Shown here one piece after another: positions 376 through 52,845 of a DNA stretch of 58,414 nucleotides. How positions within the stretch are numbered: the stretch's first letter is position 1; each line of letters begins with the position of its first letter. The translations under genes and the position numbers were made by a program. The notes under the pieces are model-generated. The model made no database searches. It was not told where the DNA came from and was given only the letters and a program-made list of their open reading frames with translations. Origin of the DNA: an uncultured delta proteobacterium (GTDB lineage: Bacteria; Desulfobacterota; Binatia; UBA9968); contig CAVUVW010000009.1 of NCBI GenBank assembly GCA_963745035.1, positions 1 through 58,414 on the forward strand, written 5' to 3'.

Positions 376-1404
376 GTGAAGCCGACAGCGGTAGTGGTCG
401 ATAAGGAATACTTGAAGCACGTTCCCGGCACCGGTCACCCGGAGCGGCCCGAGCGCATCCAGCCGCTGCTCGATCTCGCCGCGGGTTTGGACAAAGAGAA
501 GTTTGCGCTTCTGCCGCCGCGCAGTGCCGCCCGAACCGACGTCGAGCAGGTGCACGGCGCTGACCACGTGCGTCTGATCGAATCCACCTCGACGGCCAAC
601 CGCTATGCGCTCGACGGCGACACCATCACGTGCCGCGACTCCTTCGGCGTCGCTCTGCTGGCCACGGGCGGTTTTTTGACCGTGCTCGACGCGATCGCCG
701 CAAACGACAGCGCGAACGGCTTCGCGCTGGTCCGGCCGCCCGGTCACCACGCCCTGCCGGACCGGGCCATGGGTTTTTGCCTGTTCAACACGATGGCCAT
801 CGGCGCCGCGTACTTGAAGCGCCGGCACGGCGCAAAAAAAATCATGATCGTCGATTGGGACGTGCACCACGGCAACGGCACGCAGGAGATTTTTTACGAC
901 GATCCGTCGGTGCTGTTCGTCTCGAGTCATCAGTTTCCTTTTTATCCGGGCACGGGCTCGATCAACGAAGTCGGCGCCGGCGCGGGCGAAGGATACACGA
1001 TCAACGTGCCGCTGCCGGCGGGCTGCGCCGATCGGGAATATTTGCAGGTCTTTCAAGACGTGGTCGTCGCCGCGGCGGAAAAATTTGCGCCCGAGTGGTT
1101 GCTGGTTTCCGCCGGCTTCGATCCGCACCGCCGCGACCCGCTCGGCGGCATGGAGGTGAGCGAGGAAGGATTCGCCGTCATGGCGCGCGCGCTCGTCGAG
1201 CAAGCGGCGAAGCTCGCCGGCGGACGCATCGCGTTCTTGCTTGAGGGAGGCTACGATCTCGCGGCGCTGCGAGACTCGGTGGCCGCGGTGTTGGCCGAGC
1301 TGCAAGCGCCGCAAAGGAGCGCGCTCGGCGCGCTGCGGCTGGCCGACAGCGGCGTCGAGCCGATTCTGCGGCGCGTGCTGCAAGTTCATGAAAAGTATCG
1401 CTAA
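376..1404 (+). CDS. Zn-dependent histone deacetylase / acetylpolyamine amidohydrolase family protein
   Basis: Motifs HPERPER, RPPGHHA, GFCLFN, DWDVHHGNGTQ, SAGFD, LEGGY. Confidence 0.95.
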   Translation: MKPTAVVVDKEYLKHVPGTGHPERPERIQPLLDLAAGLDKEKFALLPPRSAARTDVEQVHGADHVRLIESTSTANRYALDGDTITCRDSFGVALLATGGFLTVLDAIAANDSANGFALVRPPGHHALPDRAMGFCLFNTMAIGAAYLKRRHGAKKIMIVDWDVHHGNGTQEIFYDDPSVLFVSSHQFPFYPGTGSINEVGAGAGEGYTINVPLPAGCADREYLQVFQDVVVAAAEKFAPEWLLVSAGFDPHRRDPLGGMEVSEEGFAVMARALVEQAAKLAGGRIAFLLEGGYDLAALRDSVAAVLAELQAPQRSALGALRLADSGVEPILRRVLQVHEKYR

Positions 1405-1498
1405 AGCAAATTCCTATTGACCCTCCTTGGCGACTCATCTATGTTGACTTGGACCTAAACGTTTCAGCTCCGCTACAGATCGGTTAAGTATTGCGACC

Positions 1499-2743
1499 AT
1501 GAATGAACAACGCAGAGTTGTCGTGAGCGGGCTTGGTTTAGTCTCGCCGCTGGGAACCGGCGTGAGGAAAAACTGGCAAGCGCTGCTGGAAGGCCGCTCC
1601 GGCATTCGCAAGATCACGCGCTTTGATGCGGAGGGATTTGCCGCGCGCATCGCCGGCGAGGTGCCGGATTTCAAAGCCGAGGACTACGTCGAGCCCAAAG
1701 AGATCAAGAAGATGGATCTCTTCATTCAATACGCCCTCGGCGCCGCCGCCGAAGCAATGGACGACAGCCGCCTGAAAATCGATGGCGAATTCGCCGAAGG
1801 CGTCGGCGTGATCATCGGCGTCGGCCTGTGCGGCATCGAAACCATCGAAGTAACCAAAGAAGCGTTGCTGAGCGGCGGGCCGCGCAAGATCTCGCCATTC
1901 TTCATTCCCAAAGTGATCTCCAACCTGGCGCCAGGGCAGGTGGCGATTCGCTACGGCGCCAAGGGCGTCAACTGGACGCCGACCTCGGCCTGTGCGTCCG
2001 GCACCCATGCAATCGGCGAAGCGTTTCATCTGATTCGCCGCGGCGTGCAGGACGCCGTGATTACCGGCGGGGCAGAGTCGGCAATCACGCCGCTCGGCGT
2101 CGGCGGGTTCGCCGCCATGAAGGCGCTTTCGACGCGTAACGACGAGCCGGAAAAAGCCAGCCGGCCCTTCGACAAGGCGCGCGACGGTTTTGTCGTCGGC
2201 GAAGGCTCCGGCATTCTGATTCTCGAGGAGCGCGAGCGCGCGCTCCGGCGCGGCGCGAAAATTTACGCCGAGGTGATCGGCTACGCCGCCAACGGCGACG
2301 CCTATCACATGACCGCGCCGTCGCCGGACGGCGAGGGCGCGGCGCGCTGCATGCGCCTGGCGCTGAAGGACGCCGGGCTCGCGCCCACCGACGTCGACTA
2401 CATCAACGCGCACGGCACCTCGACGGAGTACAACGACGCCAACGAAACCACGGCGATCAAGGCGGTGTTCGGCGAGCAGGCGGCCAAGCTGGCGGTCAGC
2501 TCGACGAAGTCGATGACCGGCCACCTGCTCGGCGCCGCGGGCGCGATCGAGGGCATCTATTCCGCGCTTGCGCTCTACCATGGCATGCTGCCGCCGACCA
2601 TCAATTATGACAACCCCGACCCGGAGTGCGATCTCGACTACGTGCCCAACCGGGCGCGCAAGGCCGACATCGACGTGGCGCTGTCCAATTCCTTCGGCTT
2701 CGGCGGCACCAACGGCTGCGTCATTCTCCGGAGGGCGCAATGA
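1499..2743 (+). CDS. fabF: 3-oxoacyl-ACP synthase II
   Basis: Cys-His-His triad in [14 protein letters not shown] and GHLLGAAG; ends [10 protein letters not shown]. Confidence 0.97.
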
Positions 2744-5394: not shown

Positions 5395-6118
5395 ATGTTC
5401 AGCGACAAAATCGAGTTGAAGGACTTTGAGAAGCAAGATCCCGAATACCAAGATTTGCTGCGCCGGGTGCTGGCGATCCAGGCCGATTGCGAGATCGGCG
5501 GACCGAATCTTTACGTCAAGCATATTCTCCCCGACGCGCCCACCAAGCTGGACCAGTTGATCGTCGCACGCACCGCGGCCGAGGAGATGGACCATTACCG
5601 AAAAATGGCACGCCTGGCCGGCGACATCGGCGTCGACGTATCCTTCGTGCTCAGCCGCACGAACCAGGAGCGCTACGTGGAGGCGTTCCGCGGCGAGATC
5701 AAGACCTGGGAAGACTTCGCGGTCTTCGGTTTCCTCATCGACCGGGTCGGCCGCTTCCAGCTCGAGGAGTTCATCGACTGCACTTATGTGCCGCTCGCCC
5801 GCGTGGTTGAAGATCCCGATGTCATCCGCGAAGAAGAGGGGCACATCGATTTCGGCACCAACATGTCGGCAGAATGGGCTGCCAAAGGCGGCGAGCATAA
5901 AGAGCGGATCCAGAAGGCGGTCGATTACTGGTACGTCAAGGGACTCGACATGTTCGGCAACTCGAAGTCGTACCGCTCCGAGCGCTATATGTTCTGGGGT
6001 CTCAAGCGCCGACCCAATGCCATCGCGCGCCAGCAGTATAAGGACGAAGTCGACGGTTTGCTGACCAAGATGGGGCTCGACAATCCCCGATCCGAACCAG
6101 GGGCGCCTCTACACATAG
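5395..6118 (+). CDS. Ferritin-like di-iron protein of the PaaA/PaaC (phenylacetyl-CoA epoxidase)/BoxB superfamily; +1 frameshift near 6079
   Basis: RBS AGGAGGAG. Ligand pattern ADCE, EEMDH, IDR, EEEGH plus the Paa-like tail QKAVDYWYVKGLDMFG..WGLK. Removing one base at about 6079 gives MGLTIPDPNQGRLYT* (TAG 6116-6118). Confidence 0.8.
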
Positions 6119-6121
6119 GGT

Positions 6122-6188
6122 GGTTTCGTGTCTCGGGTCCCGGCGCTTTCGGCTCAACCCGAGACTGCAAACCTGAAACTCGAGACCT
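6122..6188. repeat. Heptamer-periodic inverted repeat
   Basis: Left arm GGTTTCGTGTCTCGGGTCCCGG; right arm AACCCGA-GACTGCA-AACCTGA-AACTCGA-GAC. Confidence 0.6.
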
Positions 6189-6204
6189 AAAGGCGAGGAA
6201 TTTC

Positions 6205-6396
6205 ATGGAAGCAGCACCGAACACCGAGGCGTTGGACGAACAATTCAAGGAATTCATCCAGGCGTTGAAGAGCGCCGTGGGCTCGGCCATGCCGCATCTC
6301 AAGGACGATCCGCAGACGGTCGACAAGGCGCTCGCAGATTGCAAGGAGATTCTCGACGTGGTCATGGAGGGCAACGTCAAAGAGTGGCTCGCGTAA
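6205..6396 (+). CDS. Small acidic helical hypothetical protein (63 aa)
   Basis: GAGGA RBS then ATG 6205: MEAAPNTEALDEQFKEFIQALKSAVG...NVKEWLA; GC3-rich codons. Confidence 0.7.
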   Translation: MEAAPNTEALDEQFKEFIQALKSAVGSAMPHLKDDPQTVDKALADCKEILDVVMEGNVKEWLA

Positions 6397-6510
6397 GCCC
6401 ATGAACCGTCCGGACCGCCGGGTCCGCTCATCGAATGGTTTGTCAAAGGCGCCTTGGTTCTACAGGCGCCTTTGTGCATCAGAAACAATTTCCAGCCAGG
6501 GAGAAAAACA

Positions 6511-7290
6511 TTGAACGTCGTCGTCTGCGGCAAGGTGATCCCCGCCAGCTCGGTGACCATCGAAATCGATCCCAACACCAAGCGCATGGCGCGCAAGGGC
6601 GTGCCGCATGAGCTCGATCCGGCGGCGGCCAGCGCCGTCGAAGAGGGGCTGCGCCTCACAGAGAAACACGGCGGCGGGGTGACTTTAATTACGATGGGCA
6701 CGAGCGATGCAACGATCGGCATCCGCAACGCCTTGGCCATGGGCGCGGCCTCAGCCGTGCATATTCTCGACGAAGCGGTGGCCGGCTCCGATACTTTGGG
6801 AACCGCCAAGCTGCTCGCTGCGGCGATCAAGAAGCAGGAATTCGATCTGGTGATCTGCGCCACCGAGAGCAGCGACAGCTACTCGGGCATCGTGCCCGGG
6901 CAAATCGCGCATTTTCTCGGCGTGCCGCCGGTGACCTTCGCGAAGGAGATCGCTGTGGAGGGCGGCAAGATCACGATCAAGCGCCAGAGCGAGAGCGGCT
7001 ATGACGTGGTCGAAGCGAGCTTGCCGGCGCTGGTGGCGTGCAGCAGCGGCATCAACGAGCCGCGCTATCCGCAGCTCAAGGGCATCATGGCGGCGAAGAA
7101 AAAAGAGATCAAAGTCTACACCGCCGCCGATCTCGGTCTGGCGGCGGATCAGGTCGGCGAAAAGGGCGCGCGCGAAAAAGTCTTGACCATCGGCCGGCCG
7201 CCCAAGCGCCAGGCCGGCAAAGCGGTGGCCGACGAGGGCGAAGGCGGTAAACAGATCGCGGACTTTCTCGCTGAAATCAAGGTGATTTAA
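6511..7290 (+). CDS. etfB: Electron transfer flavoprotein beta subunit
   Basis: TTG start; VVVCGKVIP, ALAMGA, GSDTLGTAK, INEPRYP.LKGIMAAKKK. Confidence 0.95.
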   Translation: MNVVVCGKVIPASSVTIEIDPNTKRMARKGVPHELDPAAASAVEEGLRLTEKHGGGVTLITMGTSDATIGIRNALAMGAASAVHILDEAVAGSDTLGTAKLLAAAIKKQEFDLVICATESSDSYSGIVPGQIAHFLGVPPVTFAKEIAVEGGKITIKRQSESGYDVVEASLPALVACSSGINEPRYPQLKGIMAAKKKEIKVYTAADLGLAADQVGEKGAREKVLTIGRPPKRQAGKAVADEGEGGKQIADFLAEIKVI

Positions 7291-23125: not shown

Positions 23126-23524
23126 ATGCCTTTTGACGCCCAAGCGATTTTTGCCAATCTGGCCGAGAAGGAAAGGATCAAAGGCCATCATTCGGCGGAA
23201 GGCCGGGCGATTCGCACCTTGAGCCGCGCCCTGAGCGGCTGGTCGGCCGGGAGTCTCTCGCGCCGCGATGTCATGGTGCTCTGCAATCAGGCTATCGAGG
23301 ATTGGCTCAAGGTTCGCTTGGGGCGCTCGCCGTGGTCGACGCGATCCGCGCCGGCGCTTCTGCGCGCCGCAAGGGCTGCCCAGTGGATTACACAAGCGGA
23401 CGCGGATCGATTGCTGAGCCTGTACCACGCTTGCTCGCAGGCCGTTGAAGGCAGGCAGGTTTCCGCGCAGGAAGTCGAAGCCGCGCTTGAGTTTTGCATC
23501 GAGCTGATAGACAAGCATTGGTGA
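23126..23524 (+). CDS. Hypothetical helical protein (possibly HEPN-like)
   Basis: LCNQAIEDWLK..WITQADADRL..EVEAALEFCIELI; stop overlaps the next start (GTGA). Confidence 0.65.
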   Translation: MPFDAQAIFANLAEKERIKGHHSAEGRAIRTLSRALSGWSAGSLSRRDVMVLCNQAIEDWLKVRLGRSPWSTRSAPALLRAARAAQWITQADADRLLSLYHACSQAVEGRQVSAQEVEAALEFCIELIDKHW

Positions 23525-25020
23525 GTGAAGAAGTTGACCCCGGCGGCTCCCGCGCCTCGCGCACGGCCAATGGCTACGATCTTCCCGCACATCCCATGGA
23601 CTCTCGCGCCAACTGGTTGCTGCTCGCCAACGCAGCTCTAGGAAATTTTCTCGCCGGCACTGCCAGCCGAATCTTCTCTGTATCGCTGCCGACCGTCGCC
23701 GCCAGCCTGGAGACGACGATCGTCGGCATCGCCTGGGCGGTGATCGCCTATCAAATTTCCCAGATCAGCTTGTCGCTGATCTTCGGCCGCATCGGCGATA
23801 TCTACGGGCGCCACAAGCTTTTCGGTCTTGGCCTGGTCGTGTCGTCATTGGGTGCGCTGCTCTGCGGCCTCTCGCAAAACGTCACTCAATTGATCCTCTT
23901 TCGCATGTTTCAAGGCGTCGGAGCTTCCATGACTCAGTCGCAGGGACGCGCCTTGGCTATGGAAGCTTTGCCGAAAGAGTCCTCCGGGCGCGCGCAGGGA
24001 TTTATGACTACGGCGTTTCATTCGGGCGTGCTGCTCGGGCCGAGCGCCGGCGGATTGATCATCGATTATATTCACTGGCGGGCGGTGTTTTTCTTTCTGA
24101 TTCCCATCGGCCTCGCCGGCATGGTTCTTACGTTGATCAACCATTTGAAAGGCAACACGCCGAAGCGTTCAGTCACTGCTGAATCCAACGTCGCGATCGA
24201 TTACCTCGGGGCGCTGCTGCTCATCGGCGCGACTCTGGCGCTCGTTTCATGCATCGATCATCGCATCATGGAGTCTCTCGCGCCGCCGGTCCAAGTCGCG
24301 CTGGTCATTGCCTTTGTCTTGTGTTTTGCCGGTTTCATTTATCGCGAATATACGACTGCGAGCCCGATTCTGGATTTGTCCCTGTTTCGCATTCGCATGT
24401 TCACCTTGAGCGCGCTCGCGTTGCTGCTCGTCGGCGTGTCGCAAGTGATGATGGGTTTCGTCCTACCCTTTTACCTGCAGGACGTTTTGCATCTTACGCC
24501 GACCTTCATCGGGGTACTGTTTGTGAGCGCGCCTATCTTTACTGTTACTTTCTCGCCGTTCGTCGGCTGGGTAGTGGACAAGGTGGGGCCGCGGCTACCG
24601 GCGACCGCCGGCATCGGATTTTTGGCCGCGGCGGGTTTTCTAGGATCCTTTCTACGCCCGGACTCGCACTGGGCGTCAGCCGTGGTCGTGCTTGGCCTAT
24701 GGGGATTGGCGACTGCTCTATTCTTCACTTCGAATCATACGGCAATGATCAACGCGGTTCCGCCGCAGCACCGTGGCGTCGCGACGGGAGCCATCTACGT
24801 CGTTTTCGGCCTTGGCTCGACGTTCGGCGTCTCGTTGGGCACTTTGCTTCTCACGGCGGCGTTTCGCTATTACAGCGGAGACCCGGCCGCGACGCCGACG
24901 CCGAACAACCCGACCGCATTCGTTCAGGCGATGAATTTCAGTTTTGTGCTGGGCGGCCTCATGGCGCTCGTGGCGATGCTCTGCTCGGCGTTGCGGGGAA
25001 AGAGAGCGGTTGATGGATAA
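23521..25020 (+). CDS. MFS transporter, DHA2 (EmrB/QacA, 14-TM) family
   Basis: Motif A GRIGDIYGRHK, RMFQGVGA, WRAVFF, PILDLSLFR. Confidence 0.92.
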   Translation: MSEEVDPGGSRASRTANGYDLPAHPMDSRANWLLLANAALGNFLAGTASRIFSVSLPTVAASLETTIVGIAWAVIAYQISQISLSLIFGRIGDIYGRHKLFGLGLVVSSLGALLCGLSQNVTQLILFRMFQGVGASMTQSQGRALAMEALPKESSGRAQGFMTTAFHSGVLLGPSAGGLIIDYIHWRAVFFFLIPIGLAGMVLTLINHLKGNTPKRSVTAESNVAIDYLGALLLIGATLALVSCIDHRIMESLAPPVQVALVIAFVLCFAGFIYREYTTASPILDLSLFRIRMFTLSALALLLVGVSQVMMGFVLPFYLQDVLHLTPTFIGVLFVSAPIFTVTFSPFVGWVVDKVGPRLPATAGIGFLAAAGFLGSFLRPDSHWASAVVVLGLWGLATALFFTSNHTAMINAVPPQHRGVATGAIYVVFGLGSTFGVSLGTLLLTAAFRYYSGDPAATPTPNNPTAFVQAMNFSFVLGGLMALVAMLCSALRGKRAVDG

Positions 25021-25170: not shown

Positions 25171-26441
25171 ATGACTCCAGAGCCGTCATCTCGAGGCGAG
25201 CAGCTCAGACGTTACGGCCTCGTCGCGCTGGCATTTCTGCACATCGGCGTCGGCCGCGGTTTGCACGGCACGTTCGGAGTGTTTTTCGTGGCCATGCTGG
25301 ATGCCTTCGGCTGGTCGCGCGCCACCACCGCCGGCGCTATTTCGCTGGCGATTATCTTCGAAGGCGTTTGCTTGCCTTGGGCGGGCGGCCTGATCGACCG
25401 GATCGGCGGCCGAAAGACGCTGATCTCGGGCGGCCTCGTGCTCTGCGCGGGACTGCTTTTCGCGTCGACCATCTCGGCGCTGTGGCACTTCTATTTCTGG
25501 ATCGGCATCGTCAGCGCGGTCGGCATCGCTTTGATCGGTATGGTGCCGCACGTTGCGATTATCTCCCGAGAGTTTCCCCAGCGGCGCGGTACGGCGCTCG
25601 GCATCGCCTGGGCGGGCGGCGGGCTCGGCATTGTTTTGCTGGTGCCGGTGACCCAGCTCATGATCGACAAATGGGGTTGGTCGACGGCCTACGTCGCGCT
25701 GGCGGCGATCACGGTTCTGCTGATCATTCCGCCGGTGCAGGTATTTCTGCCGGCCTCGCGCGCGAAAAATCCGGCCGCGACACCCGTCCGCAAAAAATTT
25801 CGTAAAGATCACAAGGCGTCGCAGTGGAAACCGACTGGACGGTCAAGCGCGCGCTTACCAATTCCGCCTTCTGGCTGCTTTTTATCGCGCGCACTTTGGC
25901 GAGCATGGGCAATCAGGTCATCGTGACGCATCAGATCGCCCATGCCATTGACGTCGGTTATGCAAAGGTCTTTGCCGCATCGATCTTCGGATTGATGGGC
26001 GTGATCAGCATCGGTGGCAGACTTTTGTTCGGCTATCTGGCCGATGTGATGAACCGGCAGATGGTATTTGCCTTGGTGCAGATCATTTCGGCGCTGGGTA
26101 TCTTCGCGCTGCTCGCCATGGACGACGCCTCGACGCCGTGGCTGCTTTACGTTTACGCAATTTGCTACGGGCTCGGCCAGGGATCGCGCGCGCTGGTGCT
26201 CTCGGCGATTTCCGCCGACATATTTCACGGTAAGCACTTCGGCGCCATTTTCGGCTATTTTACTTTTAGCATCGGCCTCGGCGGCGCGGTTGGCGCGTGG
26301 CTCGGCGGTTTTCTTTTCGATGTGACTCAGAGTTATGCGCTGCCCTTCTGGGTCTCCCTTGCTTGTTTGATTATTTCCGTGTTTATCGTTTGGGCAAGCG
26401 GGCGCGTCGTTCAAGCGCAATCTGGAAATGAAAGGAATTAG
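25171..26441 (+). CDS. MFS transporter (OFA/MCT-like); frameshift near 25780-25825
   Basis: GGLIDRIGGRK and FPQRRGTALGI in ORF 25171; C-terminal half (AFWLLF, GYLADVMNR, GGFLFDVTQSY) in ORF 25824-26441. Confidence 0.85.
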
Positions 26442-44917: not shown

Positions 44918-46125
44918 GTGAGTGTGGCGAGCAATTCAAAACCTGCCCGCGCTTTAGATGGAGTCAAGATTCTCGCCTTCGAGCAGGTGCTTTCGGGGCC
45001 GTTTGCGACCTGTTTGTTGGCCGACATGGGCGCGGAAGTGATCAAAGTCGAGCGGCCCGGCGTCGGCGACGTGATTCGCTCGTGGGATTCGGTGGTGAAG
45101 GGCTTGTCGTCGGGCTACGTTTGGCTGAATCGCAACAAGCGCAGCTTGACGGTCGACGTCAAAAAAGAAAAAGGACGAGCCATTCTCCAGGACCTGGCGA
45201 AGCGCGTCGGATATCTTTTTCGAGAACTACGCTCCCGGCGTCGCGGGGCGATTGGGTCTTGGCTATGAAAAACTGAGCGAGATCAATCCGCGGCTGATCT
45301 ATTGCTCGCTTTCCGGCTACGGCCAGGACGGGCCATATCGGGACGTCAAGGCTTACGATCTGCTGATTCAAGGCGAGGGCGGTATCATCGCGACGACCGG
45401 CTATCCGGACAAGCCCGCGCGCGCCGGCATCGCCATCGCCGATATCGCCTCGGGCATGTACGCGGCGATCGGTATTTTGCTGGCGCTTTATCAGAGAGAA
45501 AAGACCGGCGAGGGGCAGTTGATCGACGTTTCCATGCTCGATTCGATCGTCTCCTGGCTCGGCTATTTTCCGCATCACTATTGGCACGCCGGCGAAGAGC
45601 CGGCGCGCGTCGGCATGCGCCATCATTACGTCACTCCCTATGGGCCTTATCTTGCCGGCGACGGCGAATACGTGAATCTCGCCGTGGCCAGCGCCTCGGA
45701 CTGGGAAGTTTTTTGCCGCAAGGTGATCGAGAAGCCGGAGTTTCTCGAGGACCCGCGCTTCGGCAACGGTCGAAGGGCGGCGAAAAAATCGCGGGCTACT
45801 GGAAGAGACCATCGAAAATATCTTCCGCCAAAGGGATCACAAGCATTGGCTGGAACAACTGAAAAAAGCGGAATTGCCGCACGGCATCGTGCGCGGCATC
45901 GCTCAGGTGCTGGCTCATCCTCAAGTGGCGGCGCGAAAGCTCATCCGCGAAGCCGAGTCGCCGGTCGGCAAAGTGCCGGTGATCGCCAACGCGCTCAAAA
46001 TGTCGGCCAGCGAGGCGCGCTATGATCGGATTCCAGCTTTGGGTGAAAACAATGAGGCGATTCTCCGCGAGCTCGGCTACGATGCCGCCGCCATTGAAGG
46101 GTTGAAAAAGGAACAAGTGATCTAA
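44918..46125 (+). CDS. CaiB/BaiF class III CoA-transferase; frameshifts near 45205 and 45765
   Basis: LDGVKIL, GPFAT.LLADMGAEVIKVE, NRNKRS, ENYAPG, SGYGQDGP, IADIASG, PALGE across three frames. Confidence 0.9.
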
Positions 46126-46353: not shown

Positions 46354-46909
46354 TTGCGCAAGCCGGTCGTGGGAGTGATGGGGGCATCGGCGAACGACGC
46401 CCTCAGTGCTACTGAAGCCAATCGAGTCAAAGCACTGGCCGAGGCGCTTGGTGCGGCAATCGCGCGGCAGAATTGCATTCTCATCACGGGCGCAACGACC
46501 GGCCTGCCGGATATGGTGGCCCAATCATTCCGCAAGCACGGCGGCTTTGCGCTGGGCGTATCGCCCGCAGAGAATCGCCGGGAACATGTCGCGCGCTACG
46601 GGCTGCCGGAGGATGGCGCGGATGTGATCGTCTTCACCGGCTTCGGTTACAAAGGACGCAACGTCGTCAACGTGCGCTCCGCCGACATCGTGCATGATCG
46701 TCGGCGGCGCCACCGGAACGCTGAACGAATTCACCATCGCGTACGATGAAGGCAAGATCATCGGCGTGCTCGAAGGCAGCGGCGGTATCGCCGAGCATAT
46801 TCGCGAGATCATCAAGGCCTGCAACAAGCCGACAGAGTGTCAGGTTTTCTTCGACAGCGACCCGGCGAAACTGGTCGAGACTTGTATCGAGGCTCTTCAG
46901 AAGAGGTGA
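46354..46909 (+). CDS. LOG/SLOG-family nucleotide-binding protein; frameshift near 46693
   Basis: VGVMG, LITGATTG, GVSP, RNVVNVRSAD; then VGGATGTLNEFTIAY in the next frame. Confidence 0.82.
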
Positions 46910-47511
46910 GAGAGCAATTCTCGATCAGGTCGATGGGCGCCGGCCGCTTTGCCCTTCGGTTGCGCGAAATAATCCCTCGCAAATTTTTTCAGCACGTCGC
47001 GCTTCAAACCGCTCAGACTGGCTTCTTCCACGGCCCTTTCCTCGGTCCATCCAAGCTCGACGATGCGGAAGATCAGCATGAGCGGCGCCACCCTTTCGGC
47101 GAACGCGCAGTTGATCAGCATCGGATGATTCGCTTTGTCGCGAACCAGCCGTAGAAACTCGTCAATCTGCTTGCGCTCCGGCAATTTTTTCGTCGCGGCG
47201 ATATTGAAGTAGCGCATTTTATTCTGTTCGGCCATAAATCGCTCTTGAGCAACATCTACGCCATCTCCCGCCGCTCTTAATGTCAGTACGGAACGAAACC
47301 CGTTCGCGGCTGCCTTCGCATAGGCCGTGGACGAGGGTTTGCCGCCGACCGCTGGTTTGTCATCAATGCACAGCACGATCGGTTCATCGATCTTGTCCGG
47401 GCGCGCAATGGTACCCGTTGCGGCACGCTCTGTCTGCTGCGCGGCACTGTGGCCGGCGCAAATCAAAAGAATTGCGACCCCGAGCAGCAACTCTGCGAAG
47501 CCGTACCGCAC
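46897..47511 (-). CDS. Exported DUF442/phosphatase-like (Cys-loop) protein
   Basis: Signal peptide; GGKP, GFRSVLTLR, YFNI, PMLINCAFAERV (Cx4R), GWTEERAVEEA. Confidence 0.7.
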   Translation of the reverse strand: MRYGFAELLLGVAILLICAGHSAAQQTERAATGTIARPDKIDEPIVLCIDDKPAVGGKPSSTAYAKAAANGFRSVLTLRAAGDGVDVAQERFMAEQNKMRYFNIAATKKLPERKQIDEFLRLVRDKANHPMLINCAFAERVAPLMLIFRIVELGWTEERAVEEASLSGLKRDVLKKFARDYFAQPKGKAAGAHRPDRELLSHLF

Positions 47512-47517
47512 TGGTAA

Positions 47518-48516
47518 CTAGAGCTTGAAGAGGCCCGCCGCGGTTTTGCCCAGTATGGCGGTCTTTTCATCGTTGGAGCACGGCGCCTGACGGACCATGT
47601 TGATCGACTCGATCAAATTAGCCGCTGTCTTGCATTCCAGCGGATAGTCGCTGCCGAACATGATGCGGTCGGGAGTCGTGATATTGAATGCCGCCGCCAT
47701 GGCCGGCAGCCACGCGCCGGTTCCGGCGGTGTCGAAGTAGAGGCGTTGAAAAAGTTTCTCGAAGCGTTCCGTCAGACCGAATTTTTTCTGCTCCGATTGC
47801 GTCTTGAGATAACCGCGCATATCGTTCGGAATATCCGCGTCTTCGGTTTCGAAGAATGCCATCATGCGCCCTTGAGCGACGGACGTGCCGCCGCCTAGGT
47901 GGGGCATGATGAAGCGCAACTCCGGGTAGCGCGGCAGCACGCTGTTCATCACGCGCACGATCGCCTGGGTGGTTTCCAATGGCCGAAACACGCAACGGTC
48001 GAGGTTGTAAAGAGTGTCGGAGCCTGTCGGCTTCGATTGCGGGTGAATAACGATCGGTAAATTGTTTTTCTGGATGACCTCGAAAAGCGGATTCATGACC
48101 GGATTGTCGAGCTGAACGTCGAGATGGCAGGCGAGCAGCGCGACGGCGCGCAAGCCAAGCTCGTTGATGCCTCGTTCGAGCTCGCGCTTTGCCGCCTCGG
48201 GCTCGTGCACCGGCAAGTGAATGCAACCGCGAAAGCGTTTGGGATGCTGCTTCTCGACCTCGGCGATGCCGTCGTTGAGCGCCTTGGCGACTTCAGCGCC
48301 CATCACCTGCACTTGATCGGTCAAGATGCAGATGTTGATGCCGGCTTCGTCCATGCACCGGAGGTGGGCGTCGAGATCTTTGCGCGAGGGATGAAGGGTC
48401 AAGCTGATCTCCTTGGTGACGATGCGCTTGTCGCCCGCCTGTTTGGCGAGGCGGTCGAATAATACCGGTGGCATGAAATGATGGTGAACATCGACGATTA
48501 GTTCGGCTGCGGCCAT
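47518..48516 (-). CDS. Amidohydrolase_2 family (ACMSD/aromatic decarboxylase-like)
   Basis: VDVHHH, MDEAGI, IVIHP, PHLGGG, YFDTA, IMFGSDYP. Confidence 0.92.
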   Translation of the reverse strand: MAAAELIVDVHHHFMPPVLFDRLAKQAGDKRIVTKEISLTLHPSRKDLDAHLRCMDEAGINICILTDQVQVMGAEVAKALNDGIAEVEKQHPKRFRGCIHLPVHEPEAAKRELERGINELGLRAVALLACHLDVQLDNPVMNPLFEVIQKNNLPIVIHPQSKPTGSDTLYNLDRCVFRPLETTQAIVRVMNSVLPRYPELRFIMPHLGGGTSVAQGRMMAFFETEDADIPNDMRGYLKTQSEQKKFGLTERFEKLFQRLYFDTAGTGAWLPAMAAAFNITTPDRIMFGSDYPLECKTAANLIESINMVRQAPCSNDEKTAILGKTAAGLFKL

Positions 48517-48598: not shown

Positions 48599-49306
48599 TC
48601 ATCGGCCCGACGACCTCGCGGGAAGAAGGTACGATGCGGCCAGCACAATCACGGGCATGAACGTCGCATGAACGAATAGATCCGCCGGCGTCCAGGCATA
48701 GCTCGCAAACCTCGGCGAGGCGCAGGTCGGGCAGATCCACATCAGCGGTCCGGCGAAATAAAAGGAGTTGTGCACGCCGCCGAAGATCGCGCGTTCGCCG
48801 AACAGGGCGATGCCGCCGCCGAGAGCAAAGGCGCAGGACACCATCCAGACGCGATCGACGGCGGCGTTGGAAAATCGAAAAAACATGCCGCCGAAGAAAA
48901 ACACGTAGAGGAAATACAGCAGCAGAACAAAATGAAACGGTTCGAAGGTGGTCTCGTGAAACACCGAGTGCAGGCCGAAGTTCTTGATGAGCTCGACTTG
49001 CTCCGGTCTGTCCCAGCGAAAGAAGAGCGCCTTCGAGCCGAAATCGATCAGCAGCACGCCGAGAAGAAGGCGGGCGTAGAGCTTGGCCTCGTGGGCGGCC
49101 GGCTTGCGCCATGAGCCCCTCACCTGAAAACCGCGCCACTTGGTAATCAGCAGCCAGAAGCACAACAAGACGCCGGACCAGATCAGCGCATCGTGAAAAC
49201 GACGGTGAAACGGCGCGCCCTCTTGGAGCGCGCCGGTGAGCCAAAGCGGCGCGAGAAGCGACAGCACGAGAACGAAGGAAAAATAGCGCTGCAGAGAAGC
49301 GATCAC
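48599..49306 (-). CDS. Divergent signal peptidase II (LspA)-like membrane protein
   Basis: [31 protein letters not shown], WTPAD align by eye with LspA motifs; see findings. Confidence 0.65.
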   Translation of the reverse strand: [235 protein letters not shown]

Positions 49307-49322
49307 GGAATCAAGCTCTGCC

Positions 49323-49979
49323 TCAGATCGGCGCGGCTTCGACGCCCTTCAGAACTTCCGGGGTCACGTCCTTCAACGACGAGCAAATCTTCGTCGCCTT
49401 GGAGAAGTCGTGATGGCGCGTATATTCGTTCGGCACGGCGATGCAGCGCATGCCGGCCCGATGCGCGGCCACGACTCCTTTTTCGGCGTCTTCGAAGACC
49501 AAGCATTGCGATGGAGGAACGCCGAGATCGCGCGCCGCCTTTAAAAAAATATCCGGCGCCGGCTTTACCCGCGCGACGTCAAGGCCGCTGACGACGACCT
49601 CGAAAAAGTGACCGATGGCGAGACCGGCCAGCACTCCGTCAATCGCATCGCGATAGGAGGAAGACGCCAGGGCGATCTTCACTTTTCCGCGAAGAAAATC
49701 GAGAAGCTCCAGTGCGCCTTCCATCGGCCGCAGCGACGAGGCGAGCAGGTCCAGGTAGTGCCTGGCTTTGCGCAGCCGGAGCGCGTCCGGATCCAGAGCC
49801 AGACCTCGAAGGTTCACCCAATCGACGATGCCGTTGCCGAAGCGCACCCAGTGCTCGGCGTAGTCGTCGTCCCGAAGCTCGACGCCATGCTCCGACAGCG
49901 CCATCTGGTACGCGCGGCAATGCAAACATTCCGTATCGGCCAAAAGGCCGTCCAGGTCGAAGATTACGGCGGAGATCAT
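49323..49979 (-). CDS. HAD-family phosphatase (beta-PGM/CbbY-like)
   Basis: IFDLDGLLADTE, ALASSS, KPAPDIF, VFEDAEKGV. Confidence 0.93.
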   Translation of the reverse strand: MISAVIFDLDGLLADTECLHCRAYQMALSEHGVELRDDDYAEHWVRFGNGIVDWVNLRGLALDPDALRLRKARHYLDLLASSLRPMEGALELLDFLRGKVKIALASSSYRDAIDGVLAGLAIGHFFEVVVSGLDVARVKPAPDIFLKAARDLGVPPSQCLVFEDAEKGVVAAHRAGMRCIAVPNEYTRHHDFSKATKICSSLKDVTPEVLKGVEAAPI

Positions 49980-50119: not shown

Positions 50120-50635
50120 CTAGGAAGCCTGAGGCGGCTGCCTACGAAAACGCTCGAACCGGGAGCGTACCAGAGTCTTGAGCTGATCCTGTTGCTCCGC
50201 GGTCAACACCGACTTGCCGTTCTCCAGGGCTTCGATGCGCAGGTAGCGCAGCTCGGAGCGGTATTTTTCGCTTTCCTGGATCTTTGTCTTGATCTGGATC
50301 AAGTTGGCCGGCGACTGCTGCGCCATCGCGGCGACGTCCTTTTCGATGGCCGCCAATTGCTGGTGCAGCGGCGCGACTTGGCTCTGATAGTGGTTTCTGA
50401 TCTTCTCCAAATTGGCCGTTTGCTCGCCCGTCAGGTTGAGCTCGCTCTTGTGCTTCAGCGCGATGGTGATCAGCGGCGCTCCGGCGAGACCGCCATGCAT
50501 CCGCGCGCCCCGGCTAAAATTTTTCTTGCCTGCCACGGCGCCGTCCTGGCCTGAAACCGGTGGAACGTTGGCCGCCATCATCGCCGCCACGGCGAAGGCC
50601 GCGCCGGCCAAGGTGAATTTGCGTATTCGACTCAT
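50120..50635 (-). CDS. Spy/CpxP-family periplasmic chaperone-like protein
   Basis: Signal peptide; two LTxxQ motifs (LNLTGEQ, VLTAEQ). Confidence 0.85.
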   Translation of the reverse strand: MSRIRKFTLAGAAFAVAAMMAANVPPVSGQDGAVAGKKNFSRGARMHGGLAGAPLITIALKHKSELNLTGEQTANLEKIRNHYQSQVAPLHQQLAAIEKDVAAMAQQSPANLIQIKTKIQESEKYRSELRYLRIEALENGKSVLTAEQQDQLKTLVRSRFERFRRQPPQAS

Positions 50636-51121: not shown

Positions 51122-51772
51122 CTACTCGGTCGTCTCAGCGTTCTTGGCGGCGATGAGCGACGTTGCGGATCTGGAGCGAGTCGCGAACTTTGCCCGGCGA
51201 TCTTGACGCCACTTTACTACGAGCCGAAAGCCGAGCAGCAGCGCCAGCACGGCGCCGTACTGCGCTGGACGGCTGATGTCGGCTTTGACGAGCCAATAAA
51301 AATGAATCACGCCGGCGATGGCGGCGAGATAGACGAGCCGGTGAAGCTGCTGCCAACGCTTGCCCAGCCGGCGGATCATTCCCGCGGTCGACGTGGCCGC
51401 CAACGGCACCATAATCACGAAGGCGAAAAAACCCACGGTGATGTACGGCCGTTTGATGATGTCCTTGCCGATGGCGCTGAAGTCGAAGAAGAGATCGAGG
51501 CCGATGTAAGTGGCGAAGTGCAGCGACGCGTAGAAAAACGCGAAGAGTCCGAACATGCGGCGAAATTTAATCAGCTCATTCCAGCCGGTGATGCGGCGCA
51601 GCGGCGTAACGGAGAGACTCGCGATTAAAATGATCAGCGCCCAGGAGCCGGTAAATCGAGTGATGAACTCGATCGGATTGACACCCAAGTCGTCGGTATA
51701 CGCGCCGTACGCAAGTTGAATCGCCGGAATGAGGCAGAGGAGGAAAACGAGGCGTTTGAGCCAGATGGTCAT
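51122..51772 (-). CDS. msrQ: Methionine sulfoxide reductase heme-binding subunit
   Basis: RRMFGLFAFFYASLH, KRPYITVG, PLAATS, WQQLHRLVY, IHFYW. Confidence 0.95.
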   Translation of the reverse strand: MTIWLKRLVFLLCLIPAIQLAYGAYTDDLGVNPIEFITRFTGSWALIILIASLSVTPLRRITGWNELIKFRRMFGLFAFFYASLHFATYIGLDLFFDFSAIGKDIIKRPYITVGFFAFVIMVPLAATSTAGMIRRLGKRWQQLHRLVYLAAIAGVIHFYWLVKADISRPAQYGAVLALLLGFRLVVKWRQDRRAKFATRSRSATSLIAAKNAETTE

Positions 51773-51779
51773 GACGCAG

Positions 51780-51872
51780 AATGGATAATGGATAATTGAG
51801 AATTGACAGTTAAAAGCTAAAAAAGCAGTGGTTGGTGTTCCAATTGTCCATTCTCAGTGTCAATTATCCATT
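51780..51872. repeat. Heptamer-periodic AT-rich inverted repeat between msrP and msrQ
   Basis: AATGGAT AATGGAT AATTGAG AATTGAC ... GTCCATT CTCAGT GTCAATT ATCCATT. Confidence 0.85.
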
Positions 51873-51876
51873 AACT

Positions 51877-52845
51877 TCAGTAGAATTTTTTCAGATCCAT
51901 TCCCTTATACAGACTCGCCACCTGCTCGCCGTAGCCGTTGAACATCAATGTTTTGCGGCGCAGGAATTCGCCGATGCGCCGCTCGGTTGCCTGGCTCCAG
52001 CGCGGATGATCGACTTCCGGATTTACGTTGGAATAAAAGCCGTACTCCTGAGGCTGCATCTTGTTCCACGAGCTTGGCGGTTGGGTTTCGGTAAAGCTAA
52101 TTTTGACGATCGATTTGATGCTCTTAAAGCCGTACTTCCACGGCACCACCAGGCGCACCGGGGCGCCGTTTTGCGCCGGCAGAACTTCGCCGTAAAGGCC
52201 GACCGAGAGGATCGTCAGCGGATGCATGGCTTCGTCCATGCGCAGCCCTTCGACGTACGGCCAATCGATGACGTTGCCGAAGAGGCCCGGCTTTTGGCCC
52301 GGCATGCGCTTGGGATCGACCAGAGTGACGAAGTGAACAAACTTGGCGTTGTTCGTGGGCTCGGCCAGTTTGATGAGCGCGCTCAACGGAAAGCCGACCC
52401 AAGGAATGACCATCGACCAGGCTTCGACGCAGCGCAGACGATAGACGCGCTCTTCGAGCGGACTGAGTTTCATGATCGCGTCGATGTCGTAAGTCTTGGG
52501 CTTCTTGACTTCGCCTTCGACGGCGACGGTCCACGGGCGCGTAGTCAAATACTTGGCGTTTTGCGCCGGGTCGCCTTTGTCGACGCCGAGCTCGTAGAAG
52601 TTATTGTACGAGGTGATGTCTTTGAATGAATTCTGCTTCTCGTCGGTGCCGTAGGGCCCTTTCTTGACGTTGGACAGCTTTTCGCCGGCCTGGGCTCCAT
52701 GCGCAACGGCGTCGATGCCGGCGAGCGCGGCGCCGGCCGACAGCGCAGCGGCCGATGCGCCCGCGATGAACTGGCGACGGTTCATGTACAGGTCTCTCGG
52801 CGTGATCTCGGACGATTTGATATCCGCGGCTCTTTTGATCAGCAT
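51877..52845 (-). CDS. msrP: Periplasmic methionine sulfoxide reductase Mo catalytic subunit
   Basis: Tat motif [46 protein letters not shown]. Confidence 0.97.

Follow-up and report, generated by a model that had tools for sequence, protein, structure and literature searches.

A conserved LspA-fold membrane protein family with an altered catalytic site in an uncultured Binatia genus, tentatively read as a ligand-holding pseudo-peptidase

Introduction

LspA (signal peptidase II) is indispensable to Gram-negative bacteria and serves as an antibiotic target, and PMC6952399 ascribes the 'resistance-proof' nature of globomycin and myxovirescin to 14 conserved residues of this enzyme. A gene on contig CAVUVW010000009.1 of the uncultured delta proteobacterium assembly GCA_963745035.1 raises the question of what an LspA fold serves for when part of this residue set has changed. 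The whole stretch of 58,414 nucleotides analysed here, hereafter the window, is the entire contig (C9) of a 28-contig, 7.4-Mb genome (G000; 92.6% complete, 5.8% contaminated), and the relatives that bear names are metagenome-assembled genomes of Candidatus Binatia or Binatota. An intact open reading frame (ORF) of 235 amino acids with a GTG start occupies positions 48599-49306 of its minus strand and is referred to below as the LspA-like gene.

The analysis showed that the LspA fold is kept under selection in this family while three of the 14 'untouchable' residues change, and that the first catalytic position tolerates asparagine and aspartate equally. A family that stays intact under selection despite inactivating changes points to a new job for the LspA fold in an uncultured soil genus. 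A ligand-holding intramembrane pseudo-peptidase built on this fold is the reading that we tentatively favour from the residue pattern.

Results

The LspA-like protein has a predicted LspA fold

The two features on which the fold assignment bears are as follows.

48599..49306, minus strand: whole ORF, LspA-like six-helix membrane protein, with a TGA stop at 48599-48601 (ORF, 229 homologues, dN/dS and fold)
48602..49111, minus strand: LspA-fold core, residues 66-235, four helices and beta-cradle (VIA-align, Foldseek, PF01252)

Sequence profiles detected the relationship to LspA at their margin. The Pfam profile PF01252 (Peptidase_A8) matched residues 82-214 over profile positions 3-131 of 142 with 17.9 bits (E 0.0036), under the cut-off of 25 bits, and among 13 representatives of the family scanned against it only P0121 passed (27.9 bits), P0131, P0132 and P0145 scoring 18-20 bits. 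A precomputed PF01252 assignment was present on 13 of the 120 listed relatives, and many relatives are labelled 'lipoprotein signal peptidase' by the automatic annotation of JGI. No NCBIfam family matched the protein at E<=10. Sequence searches against solved structures returned one match for the single protein (E 0.88) and two for the profile of the close-clade alignment (E>=4.9), all of them unrelated. Profiles were compared directly, using the close-clade alignment (A1, 21 sequences), a family alignment (A3, 67 rows) and an alignment of ten canonical LspAs drawn from the window genome and five related genomes (A5). The hhalign comparison of A3 with A5 gave a probability of 82.5% and an E value of 9.8e-6 over 132 columns, and thereby reproduced an LspA alignment that had been made by eye in a preliminary description of this DNA; A1 against one canonical LspA gave a probability of only 8%.

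Structure prediction pointed to the same fold. AlphaFold models of the LspA-like protein (pLDDT 89.8, pTM 0.82) and of its 27%-identical relative P0131 (pLDDT 89.3, pTM 0.85) were built from alignments consisting of family members only, with no canonical LspA included. With the model of the window protein, the top five chains in Foldseek were all LspA with a probability of 1.00, followed by the next chain at 0.07, and VIA-align gave Z scores of 14.3, 13.8 and 13.6 to the LspA structures 6RYP, 6RYO and 5DIR, the next match having a Z of 5.7. These superpositions covered 150, 144 and 140 of 155-164 residues at an rmsd of 2.8-3.3 Å and involved model residues 66-235. The P0131 model likewise aligned with the LspA structures (Z 14.5, 14.1 and 13.5; next match 5.4). 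For a stored homologue, the protein atlas gave first a separate Binatota cluster, 12% of whose 86 members bear PF01252, and after it, below 0.9, clusters of ordinary LspA. A structural match to LspA was thus borne out by Foldseek and VIA-align, which found only LspA structures, and the models firmly support an LspA-fold paralogue with four transmembrane helices and a beta-cradle.

The gene is genuine and under purifying selection

At E<=1e-3, 229 proteins matched the LspA-like protein, and the 120 listed ones share its length at 60-93% identity. Across 17 genomes the pairwise dN/dS was 0.17 and the pN/pS was 0.35, as compared with dN/dS values of 0.13 for the HAD gene and 0.14 for the LTXXQ gene next to it. 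Because of the 229 homologues and the low dN/dS, the ORF is beyond chance, and the gene is genuine and under purifying selection. The constraint differs along the protein, with a pN/pS of 0.275 in the LspA core versus 0.545 in the N-terminal extension over the same genomes.

Short contigs of three metatranscriptome libraries from two studies fell within the gene, differing from it at 1-2 positions over 151-207 nt; this is no more than suggestive of expression, DNA carry-over being possible in such libraries. Stretches of the gene such as 49176-49397 had no contig in the three RNA runs, a gap that carries no evidential weight. In one genus member (G709:C28:97661-98353) the LspA-like gene was found in three pieces in different frames, which could reflect either a decaying gene or indel errors of a long-read assembly. 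This site is probably the same as positions 6001-6681 of locus L020, where the adjoining HAD gene likewise matches only partly.

Three of the 14 conserved LspA residues are altered

The residue comparison involves the following segments.

49031..49045, minus strand: DFGSK, residues 88-92, equivalent by hhalign to DQxTK (Asp21/Lys25)
48956..48982, minus strand: NFGLHSVFH, residues 109-117, possible equivalent of Asn52-x-Gly54 with the following loop, containing His113 and His117, invariant in the close clade
48791..48820, minus strand: ten residues, 163-172, equivalent to GGAxGNxxDR; Leu168 stands in place of Asn106 and Glu171 in place of Asp109, and Arg172 corresponds to Arg110
48761..48781, minus strand: GGVHNSF, residues 176-182, first catalytic position, with Asn180 (codon AAC, 48767-48769) in place of the Asp of GxVxDF
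48680..48703, minus strand: SYAWTPAD, residues 202-209, with Asp209 as the second catalytic aspartate and Thr206 in place of Asn133

PMC6952399 describes 14 residues of S. aureus LspA as highly conserved. The numbering of this enzyme was transferred through the genome's own LspA, aligned to 5DIR and 6RYO, and then through the hhalign alignment of A3 with A5; this LspA of the genome and that of P. aeruginosa (5DIR) served as references, instead of the E. coli sequence used in the preliminary description. In this alignment D88 and K92 paired with the Asp and Lys of DQxTK, residues 163-172 with GGAIGNLIDR, GGVHN with GEVID, and WTPAD with FNVAD. Seven of the 14 residues are identical (Asp21=D88, Lys25=K92, Gly102=G164, Arg110=R172, Val116=V178, Ala135=A208 and Asp136=D209), two are changed conservatively (Asp109 to E171 and Phe132 to W205), and three are altered, namely Asn106 to L168, Asp118 to N180 and Asn133 to T206. 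The last two of the 14, Asn52 and Gly54, which belong to the end of the beta-cradle strand, are placed differently by HMMER and hhalign. The replacement of the first catalytic aspartate by Asn180, with the second one kept as Asp209, had been correctly noticed at the outset.

A loss of all the conserved asparagines (NxG, GN and FN) had also been claimed, and this holds for GN and FN, which hhalign aligns with A167-L168 and W205-T206. The loss of NxG is unproven and probably wrong: HMMER aligned N109-F-G111 with N-T-G (6.9 bits) without a gap up to G177, where hhalign places a gap of nine residues, and this tripeptide is spaced from the GG motif by 55 residues, as in LspA, and shows no variation among 21 close relatives. 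Distant members do not retain N109, and the position of H113 is occupied there by Gln, Glu or Cys and that of H117 by Asn or His.

The altered site is itself conserved. Among 135 family members, Asp209 is present in 133, R172 in 133, D88 in 131, K92 in 128, L168 in 127, E171 in 126 and T206 in 123, and all eight residues of SYAWTPAD are invariant in 21 of 21 close-clade sequences, which very few other stretches match. In S. aureus LspA (LspMrs), Table 1 of PMC6952399 lists activities of 0% for D118N, 3% for N133A and N133Q, and 0% for R110A. Because Asn180 corresponds to D118N and Thr206 to a change of Asn133, the LspA-like protein carries natural equivalents of two inactivating substitutions.

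To judge from these residues, the protein is most probably not an ordinary signal peptidase II, as had been proposed from the start. A merely divergent but ordinary enzyme could account for the LspA fold, the JGI labels, the PF01252 assignments among the listed relatives and the score of P0121. Set against this are the two inactivating equivalents, a Pfam score below the cut-off, the lack of an NCBIfam model, and two complete lspA genes that the genome already holds, and we regard this explanation as the least credible of those considered. The automatic label 'lipoprotein signal peptidase' on these proteins is probably a wrong functional call.

Asparagine and aspartate interchange at position 180

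Position 180 was counted in 134 family rows, after exclusion of the partial or chimeric P0122, P0144 and P0146, the unrelated P0148 and all proteins shorter than 170 residues. Asparagine occupied it in 111 rows and aspartate in 21, the other two having Tyr or Glu; in the count over 135 members used for the other sites, 111 had Asn, 20 had Asp and four had something else. Within the close clade, 108 of 122 rows had Asn and 14 had Asp, and a third residue was never seen. A maximum-likelihood tree from which this column had been left out called for at least 12 changes between Asp and Asn, and several separated the members of sister pairs with 90-99% support, such as P0033 (N) and P0038 (D; support 99), P0069 (N) and P0093 (D; 96), and P0129 (N) and P0135 (D; 99). 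The same alternation was seen in a distant low-GC clade, in which L038 reads GGVHD and L039 reads GGVHN, each being 61-63% identical to P0131. Sequences with Asp were about as close to the clade consensus as those with Asn (0.788 vs 0.811) and had the same other active-site motifs. The codons concerned were AAY and GAY, a single G/A change as expected. No nearby compensating change co-varied with the residue at position 180, and the strongest associations (positions 142, 38 and 29) look phylogenetic.

This pattern qualifies the pseudo-peptidase proposal of the preliminary description: the LspA fold with Asn180 stands, and the notion of a single loss does not, given the aspartate of 21 members and the repeated toggling. 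With at least 12 switches at position 180, Asn180 does not stand for a single event of loss, and the protein may be a hydrolase with a remodelled site. From the alignment, position 180 appears to require a side chain of the shape of Asp or Asn, rather than a carboxylate, beside the indispensable carboxylate of Asp209, and such interchange would be unlike the behaviour of a two-aspartate dyad.

The main rival to the pseudo-peptidase is a single-carboxylate hydrolase, in which Asp209 would activate the water, residue 180 would only form hydrogen bonds, Glu171-Arg172 would assist, and the substrate would be something other than ordinary prolipoproteins. Glutamic peptidases, which use a Glu/Gln pair, offer a precedent. 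The near-universal Asp209 fits this proposal, and the restriction of position 180 to Asp or Asn in 122 of 122 close-clade rows is expected if this residue plays the hydrogen-bonding role of a protonated aspartate. The pocket region is also the most conserved part of the protein, and it keeps Glu171 as well as Arg172, the counterpart of the arginine whose change to alanine leaves no activity in LspMrs (PMC6952399). The core has a lower pN/pS than the N-terminus. Conversely, D118N and the Asn133 mutants in the same source are inactive or nearly so, and both changes are found here together with the change of Asn106 to Leu. We consider a hydrolase of this type rather unlikely, though a serious contender. 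Its more specific form is an active 'half dyad' intramembrane hydrolase, in which Asp209 would do the chemistry, an Asp or Asn partner would hydrogen-bond, the CPxC loop described below would act as a lid, and the substrate would presumably be new and lipid-linked; this form seems slightly less likely still.

Parts added to the LspA scaffold

Three segments have no counterpart in canonical LspA or extend it.

49127..49306, minus strand: N-terminal extension, residues 1-60, with predicted helices 2-27 and 38-56 (two models), absent from canonical LspA
49100..49120, minus strand: RGSWRKP, residues 63-69, with a short strand (64-66), probably on the cytoplasmic side; Gly64 in 135 of 135 and Trp66 in 133 of 135 members
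48713..48748, minus strand: 12-residue insert, residues 187-198, between the catalytic positions, with Cys192-Pro-Thr-Cys195 at 48722-48733

Two extra N-terminal helices had been recognised beforehand and were recovered, although the addition amounts to about 55-65 residues and not to the 75 then given, the core beginning near residue 66-68. Residues 1-60 of both models matched only generic helical pairs (Z<=5.4), and Leu5 and Tyr8 are invariant within the close-clade and the distant-clade alignments alike. In P0145, a distant member of 349 amino acids, the two-helix hairpin is replaced by an RDD domain (PF06271, 60.9 bits) fused in front of the LspA-like domain. The loop of residues 57-70 contains four Lys or Arg and no Asp or Glu, and Gly64, Trp66 and Arg144 (132 of 135) are predicted to belong to a small two-stranded sheet on the cytoplasmic side that has no counterpart in canonical LspA.

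The CxxC insert between the two catalytic positions was confirmed, 132 of 135 members having Cys192 and 131 having Cys195, and was modelled in both structures as a short helix followed by a loop. In the distant clade it reads CPxCG. The LspA dyad is located toward the outer surface of the membrane according to PMC6952399, and the homology to LspA together with the distribution of loop charges indicates that the insert probably faces the periplasm. Its cysteines could be joined in a disulfide or act as a redox pair, or they could supply one half of a metal site. No second conserved pair of cysteines was present in the close-clade or wider family alignments. Of the histidines, to which the preliminary description had drawn attention, His113, His117, His125, His179 and His213 are each kept in 117-128 of 135 members; they belong to the close clade and are not conserved in the distant clades, and His179 is replaced by Gln in three and by Tyr in one of 17 genomes. 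Conservation across homologues had been suggested as a check: Asp209 and the cysteine pair are conserved, and position 180 and the histidines vary.

These cysteines allow for an alternative in which the CPxC loop is central, the protein being a membrane thiol-disulfide or metal protein (a Zn/Cu sensor or binder) on an LspA scaffold with the histidines as extra ligands. The high conservation of both cysteines, the five close-clade histidines, the knuckle-like CPxCG of the distant clade, and a weak ADK_lid match at this site in P0130 (E 0.0066, below cut-off) are in line with such a role, and an LTXXQ or Metal_resist-like periplasmic protein is encoded two genes upstream, with MsrPQ further upstream. 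Against it, there is a single Cys pair, one cysteine is lost in each of P0081 and P0141, and a periplasmic CxxC may be a mere structural disulfide. Models that depend on the histidines are weakened because these residues are clade-specific and His179 is variable. The neighbours help little, as the LTXXQ gene persists where the LspA-like gene is missing, its protein matches Metal_resist with 27.3 bits (cut-off 29.2), and MsrPQ had no match in any of 18 related loci. A central redox or metal function is improbable by this balance; a redox or metal role of the loop may nevertheless be combined with the pseudo-peptidase or with the hydrolase.

An accessory gene and third paralogue with the LspA fold

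A canonical lspA had been expected elsewhere in the genome, and two complete copies were detected. The housekeeping LspA (179 amino acids, 146.8 bits) has all motifs intact and is encoded directly downstream of IleS, and a second complete paralogue (L002; G000:C13:775193-778624, ORF 1228-1965, plus strand) scores 104 bits against PF01252. Canonical lspA was present with the same score pattern in five of five other carrier genomes tested (six of six with G000), and the second paralogue occurred in G401, G403, G404 and G405 (L025-L028, 102.6-111.7 bits) and was not found in G402. Most of these organisms hold three LspA-fold genes. The LspA-like gene is unlinked to either lspA locus and lies on a separate contig.

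The co-occurrence with canonical LspA in all six carrier genomes examined would permit a regulator of the housekeeping enzyme, an inactive paralogue that would pair with the active one or vie with it for substrates, which is a common pattern of pseudoenzymes. The location on a different contig from both lspA loci speaks against it, and such a regulator is very unlikely. When the LspA-like protein and the housekeeping LspA were modelled as a complex, without controls, the scores were 0.27 and 0.11 relative to a mark of 0.32, values that speak neither for nor against an interaction.

The distribution of the gene is narrow. A phylum-wide sample of 400 other genomes contained no copy, and in a sample of the class it occurred in two of six genomes of the window's genus, in none of 19 genomes from other genera of the family and in none of 275 genomes from other families. 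In the genus as a whole, 22 of 31 genomes carry it (G000 and G706 counted), including six of the ten of high quality. A search of 1.84 billion representative sequences at E<=1e-3 returned 29 matching clusters, about ten of which are full-length distant relatives.

An accessory gene that is patchily distributed in a soil genus might also serve as a decoy or immunity protein that soaks up LspA inhibitors of the globomycin or myxovirescin type, as had been one of the suggestions. Producers of such inhibitors have extra lspA copies (PMC8689077 and PMC9943842), and an asparagine at position 180 would still be able to hydrogen-bond the blocking hydroxyl. However, the window (47 ORFs) contains no biosynthetic cluster; GlobF retains, according to PMC9943842, all 14 conserved residues, at least three of which are changed here; the changed residues include ones reported within hydrogen-bond distance of the antibiotics (PMC6952399); and binding one to one would demand very high expression. 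We assign this role only a slim chance.

Gene context

The LspA-like gene belongs to a run of genes on the same strand. Its neighbours, from upstream to downstream, are listed below.

50120-50635, minus strand: LTXXQ-family periplasmic protein, two genes upstream of the LspA-like gene
49323..49979, minus strand: HAD-IA phosphatase, a separate protein (HAD_2, 101.7 bits; below all NCBIfam equivalog cut-offs)
47518-48516, minus strand: Amidohydro_2, downstream of the LspA-like gene
46897-47511, minus strand: PTP-like secreted protein of 204 amino acids with a signal peptide (best score 26.2 bits, cut-off 27)

The HAD gene upstream and the amidohydrolase gene downstream had been described before, together with an overlap of the LspA-like gene with the HAD region; the neighbours are as stated, and in place of an overlap there is a gap of 16 nt between the HAD stop and the GTG start. 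A scan for promoters and terminators revealed no convincing terminator, and the two genes are probably co-transcribed. The scan found two promoter-like sites (1.1 expected) and five terminator-like sites (6.0 expected), and the operon is not defined thereby. All matches of the protein at 46897-47511 to dual-specificity or PTP-like phosphatase families were below threshold, and it may be a secreted phosphatase-like protein. Its gene is tandem-duplicated in the genus member L032 (G591:C341, 1019-2156), the copies being 54% and 60% identical to that of the window.

At 18 related loci the HAD gene was upstream in all 18 and the LTXXQ gene in 16, with Amidohydro_2 downstream in 17 and the PTP-like gene in 15, and every miss fell at a contig end. 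This synteny says little, since the genomes all belong to one genus. More is learned from the genus members that have no LspA-like gene, in which the block of amidohydrolase and PTP-like genes is retained with different upstream neighbours in each, and in which orthologues of the HAD and LTXXQ genes persist. Because it stays in place there, the amidohydrolase is not specifically linked to the LspA-like gene. Downstream of the HAD gene, G606 has the restriction-related genes HSDR_N and PDDEXK_3 and G409 has a NUDIX gene; the gene order of G537 is rearranged. Where the LspA-like gene would be expected in G606 (L040, G606:C63, 1754-2769), a PD-(D/E)XK nuclease is encoded, along with a piece that resembles the N-terminus of HsdR of type I restriction. 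No remnant of the LspA-like gene was found in the G606, G409 and G537 loci even at E<=10. The G606 locus suggests that insertions and rearrangements take place at this junction, and the context as a whole shows the LspA-like gene to be an accessory one in a rearrangement-prone place. A metagenome scan with the distant-clade alignment yielded only two loci, both of which have unrelated neighbours; this number is too small for a judgement on gene context beyond the genus.

The rest of the 58-kb window encodes ordinary metabolism, and among its 47 scanned ORFs the sole item related to a biosynthetic cluster was a stand-alone ketosynthase. Upstream of the LTXXQ gene, at 51122-52845 on the minus strand, MsrQ (209 bits) and MsrP (491 bits) form the periplasmic methionine-sulfoxide repair pair. 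Three genes on the plus strand are split into two ORFs each, namely CoA_transf_3 (44918-45268 and 45252-46025), SLOG cluster4 (46354-46749 and 46694-46909), whose pieces are contiguous and in one frame in related loci, and an MFS transporter (23494-25020 and 25171-25926). These are probably frameshifts caused by assembly indel errors, or else true pseudogenes.

Discussion

A ligand-holding pseudo-peptidase is, tentatively, the reading that best combines these results. The protein would be a six-helix inner-membrane protein in which a two-helix N-terminal hairpin is followed by a complete LspA fold (MEROPS A8), and its gene is an accessory third paralogue, beside the ileS-linked housekeeping lspA and the second complete lspA, whose product would lack the standard function of a two-aspartate peptidase. 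The LspA pocket at the membrane's outer face would still be used, with the ligand being retained there and not cut, and candidate ligands are a lipobox-like peptide, the N-terminus of a lipoprotein or a lipid head group. In LspA, the signal peptide is proposed to lie in the groove between H2, H3 and H4. The CPxC loop, in which a disulfide or a small metal site is probably formed, may be a new cover on the pocket. We infer that the pocket is retained for a ligand because the former active site, with SYAWTPAD and Asp209, Glu171-Arg172 and Asp88/Lys92, is the most conserved region. The pseudo-peptidase is preferred because this pocket is preserved, the catalytic network is dismantled, the genome is fully redundant for real LspAs and parts have been added. 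As in other pseudoproteases, the fold is kept, a catalytic residue is replaced, selection is purifying and new parts are present, with the caveat that 21 of 134 members keep Asp.

Several points weigh against this reading. The gene is missing from nine of the 31 genomes of the genus and is therefore dispensable, its context yields no functional lead, and the argument for binding is drawn from the pattern of conservation. The invariant Asp209 beside a residue restricted to Asp or Asn would also fit a remodelled hydrolytic site. In addition, six of ten distant relatives have Asp at position 180, hence both aspartates are present in part of the family, and these two-aspartate members may be catalytically competent.

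The full-text literature searched, a scope that left out subscription journals and MEROPS, contained no description of a catalytically altered LspA-like family. MEROPS, we presume, may list such sequences as non-peptidase homologues.

Comparison with known systems

LspA (PF01252; 5DIR, 6RYO, 6RYP) shares the whole fold with the LspA-like protein, as well as seven of the 14 conserved residues identically and two conservatively. The differences are a first catalytic position that varies between Asn and Asp, the changes of Asn106 to Leu and Asn133 to Thr, the CPxC insert and the two extra helices; at the gene level, the LspA-like family scores below the Pfam cut-off, is not beside ileS, is dispensable in its genus and has a very narrow distribution. 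The second LspA paralogue (L002, L025-L028) also has the LspA fold and, unlike the LspA-like protein, keeps DQxTK, NTG or NSG, GGLSNLxDR, VVDF and FNxAD without a CPxC insert.

Extra copies beside a housekeeping lspA are likewise known from antibiotic producers, namely LspA3 and LspA4 of M. xanthus in the myxovirescin cluster and GlobF of Streptomyces in the globomycin cluster. In PMC8689077 and PMC9943842, LspA1-4 of M. xanthus and GlobF are reported as functional peptidases, and GlobF is unchanged at the 14 conserved residues. LspA3, LspA4 and GlobF sit in biosynthetic clusters, whereas the LspA-like gene has at least three of the 14 residues changed and no cluster nearby.

The closest conceptual parallels are the iRhoms among rhomboid proteases and EGY3 among site-2 proteases, in which, according to PMC6451368, PMC3149277 and PMC9355673, the fold is kept, a catalytic residue is lost, parts are added and the sequence is conserved. 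If the LspA-like protein still hydrolysed a substrate, its active site would be of a kind new to intramembrane aspartyl proteases. If it is a pseudoprotease, it would be the first of the intramembrane aspartyl type in bacteria and would receive or hold lipoprotein N-termini, and if it binds lipobox-like ligands uncleaved, it would act as a naturally occurring trap for substrates and parallel the iRhoms in a bacterium. The iRhoms and EGY3 differ from it in being eukaryotic and of unrelated folds, and the LspA-like family keeps Asp in about one in six members, its putative catalytic loss being deduced from the residues that it carries.

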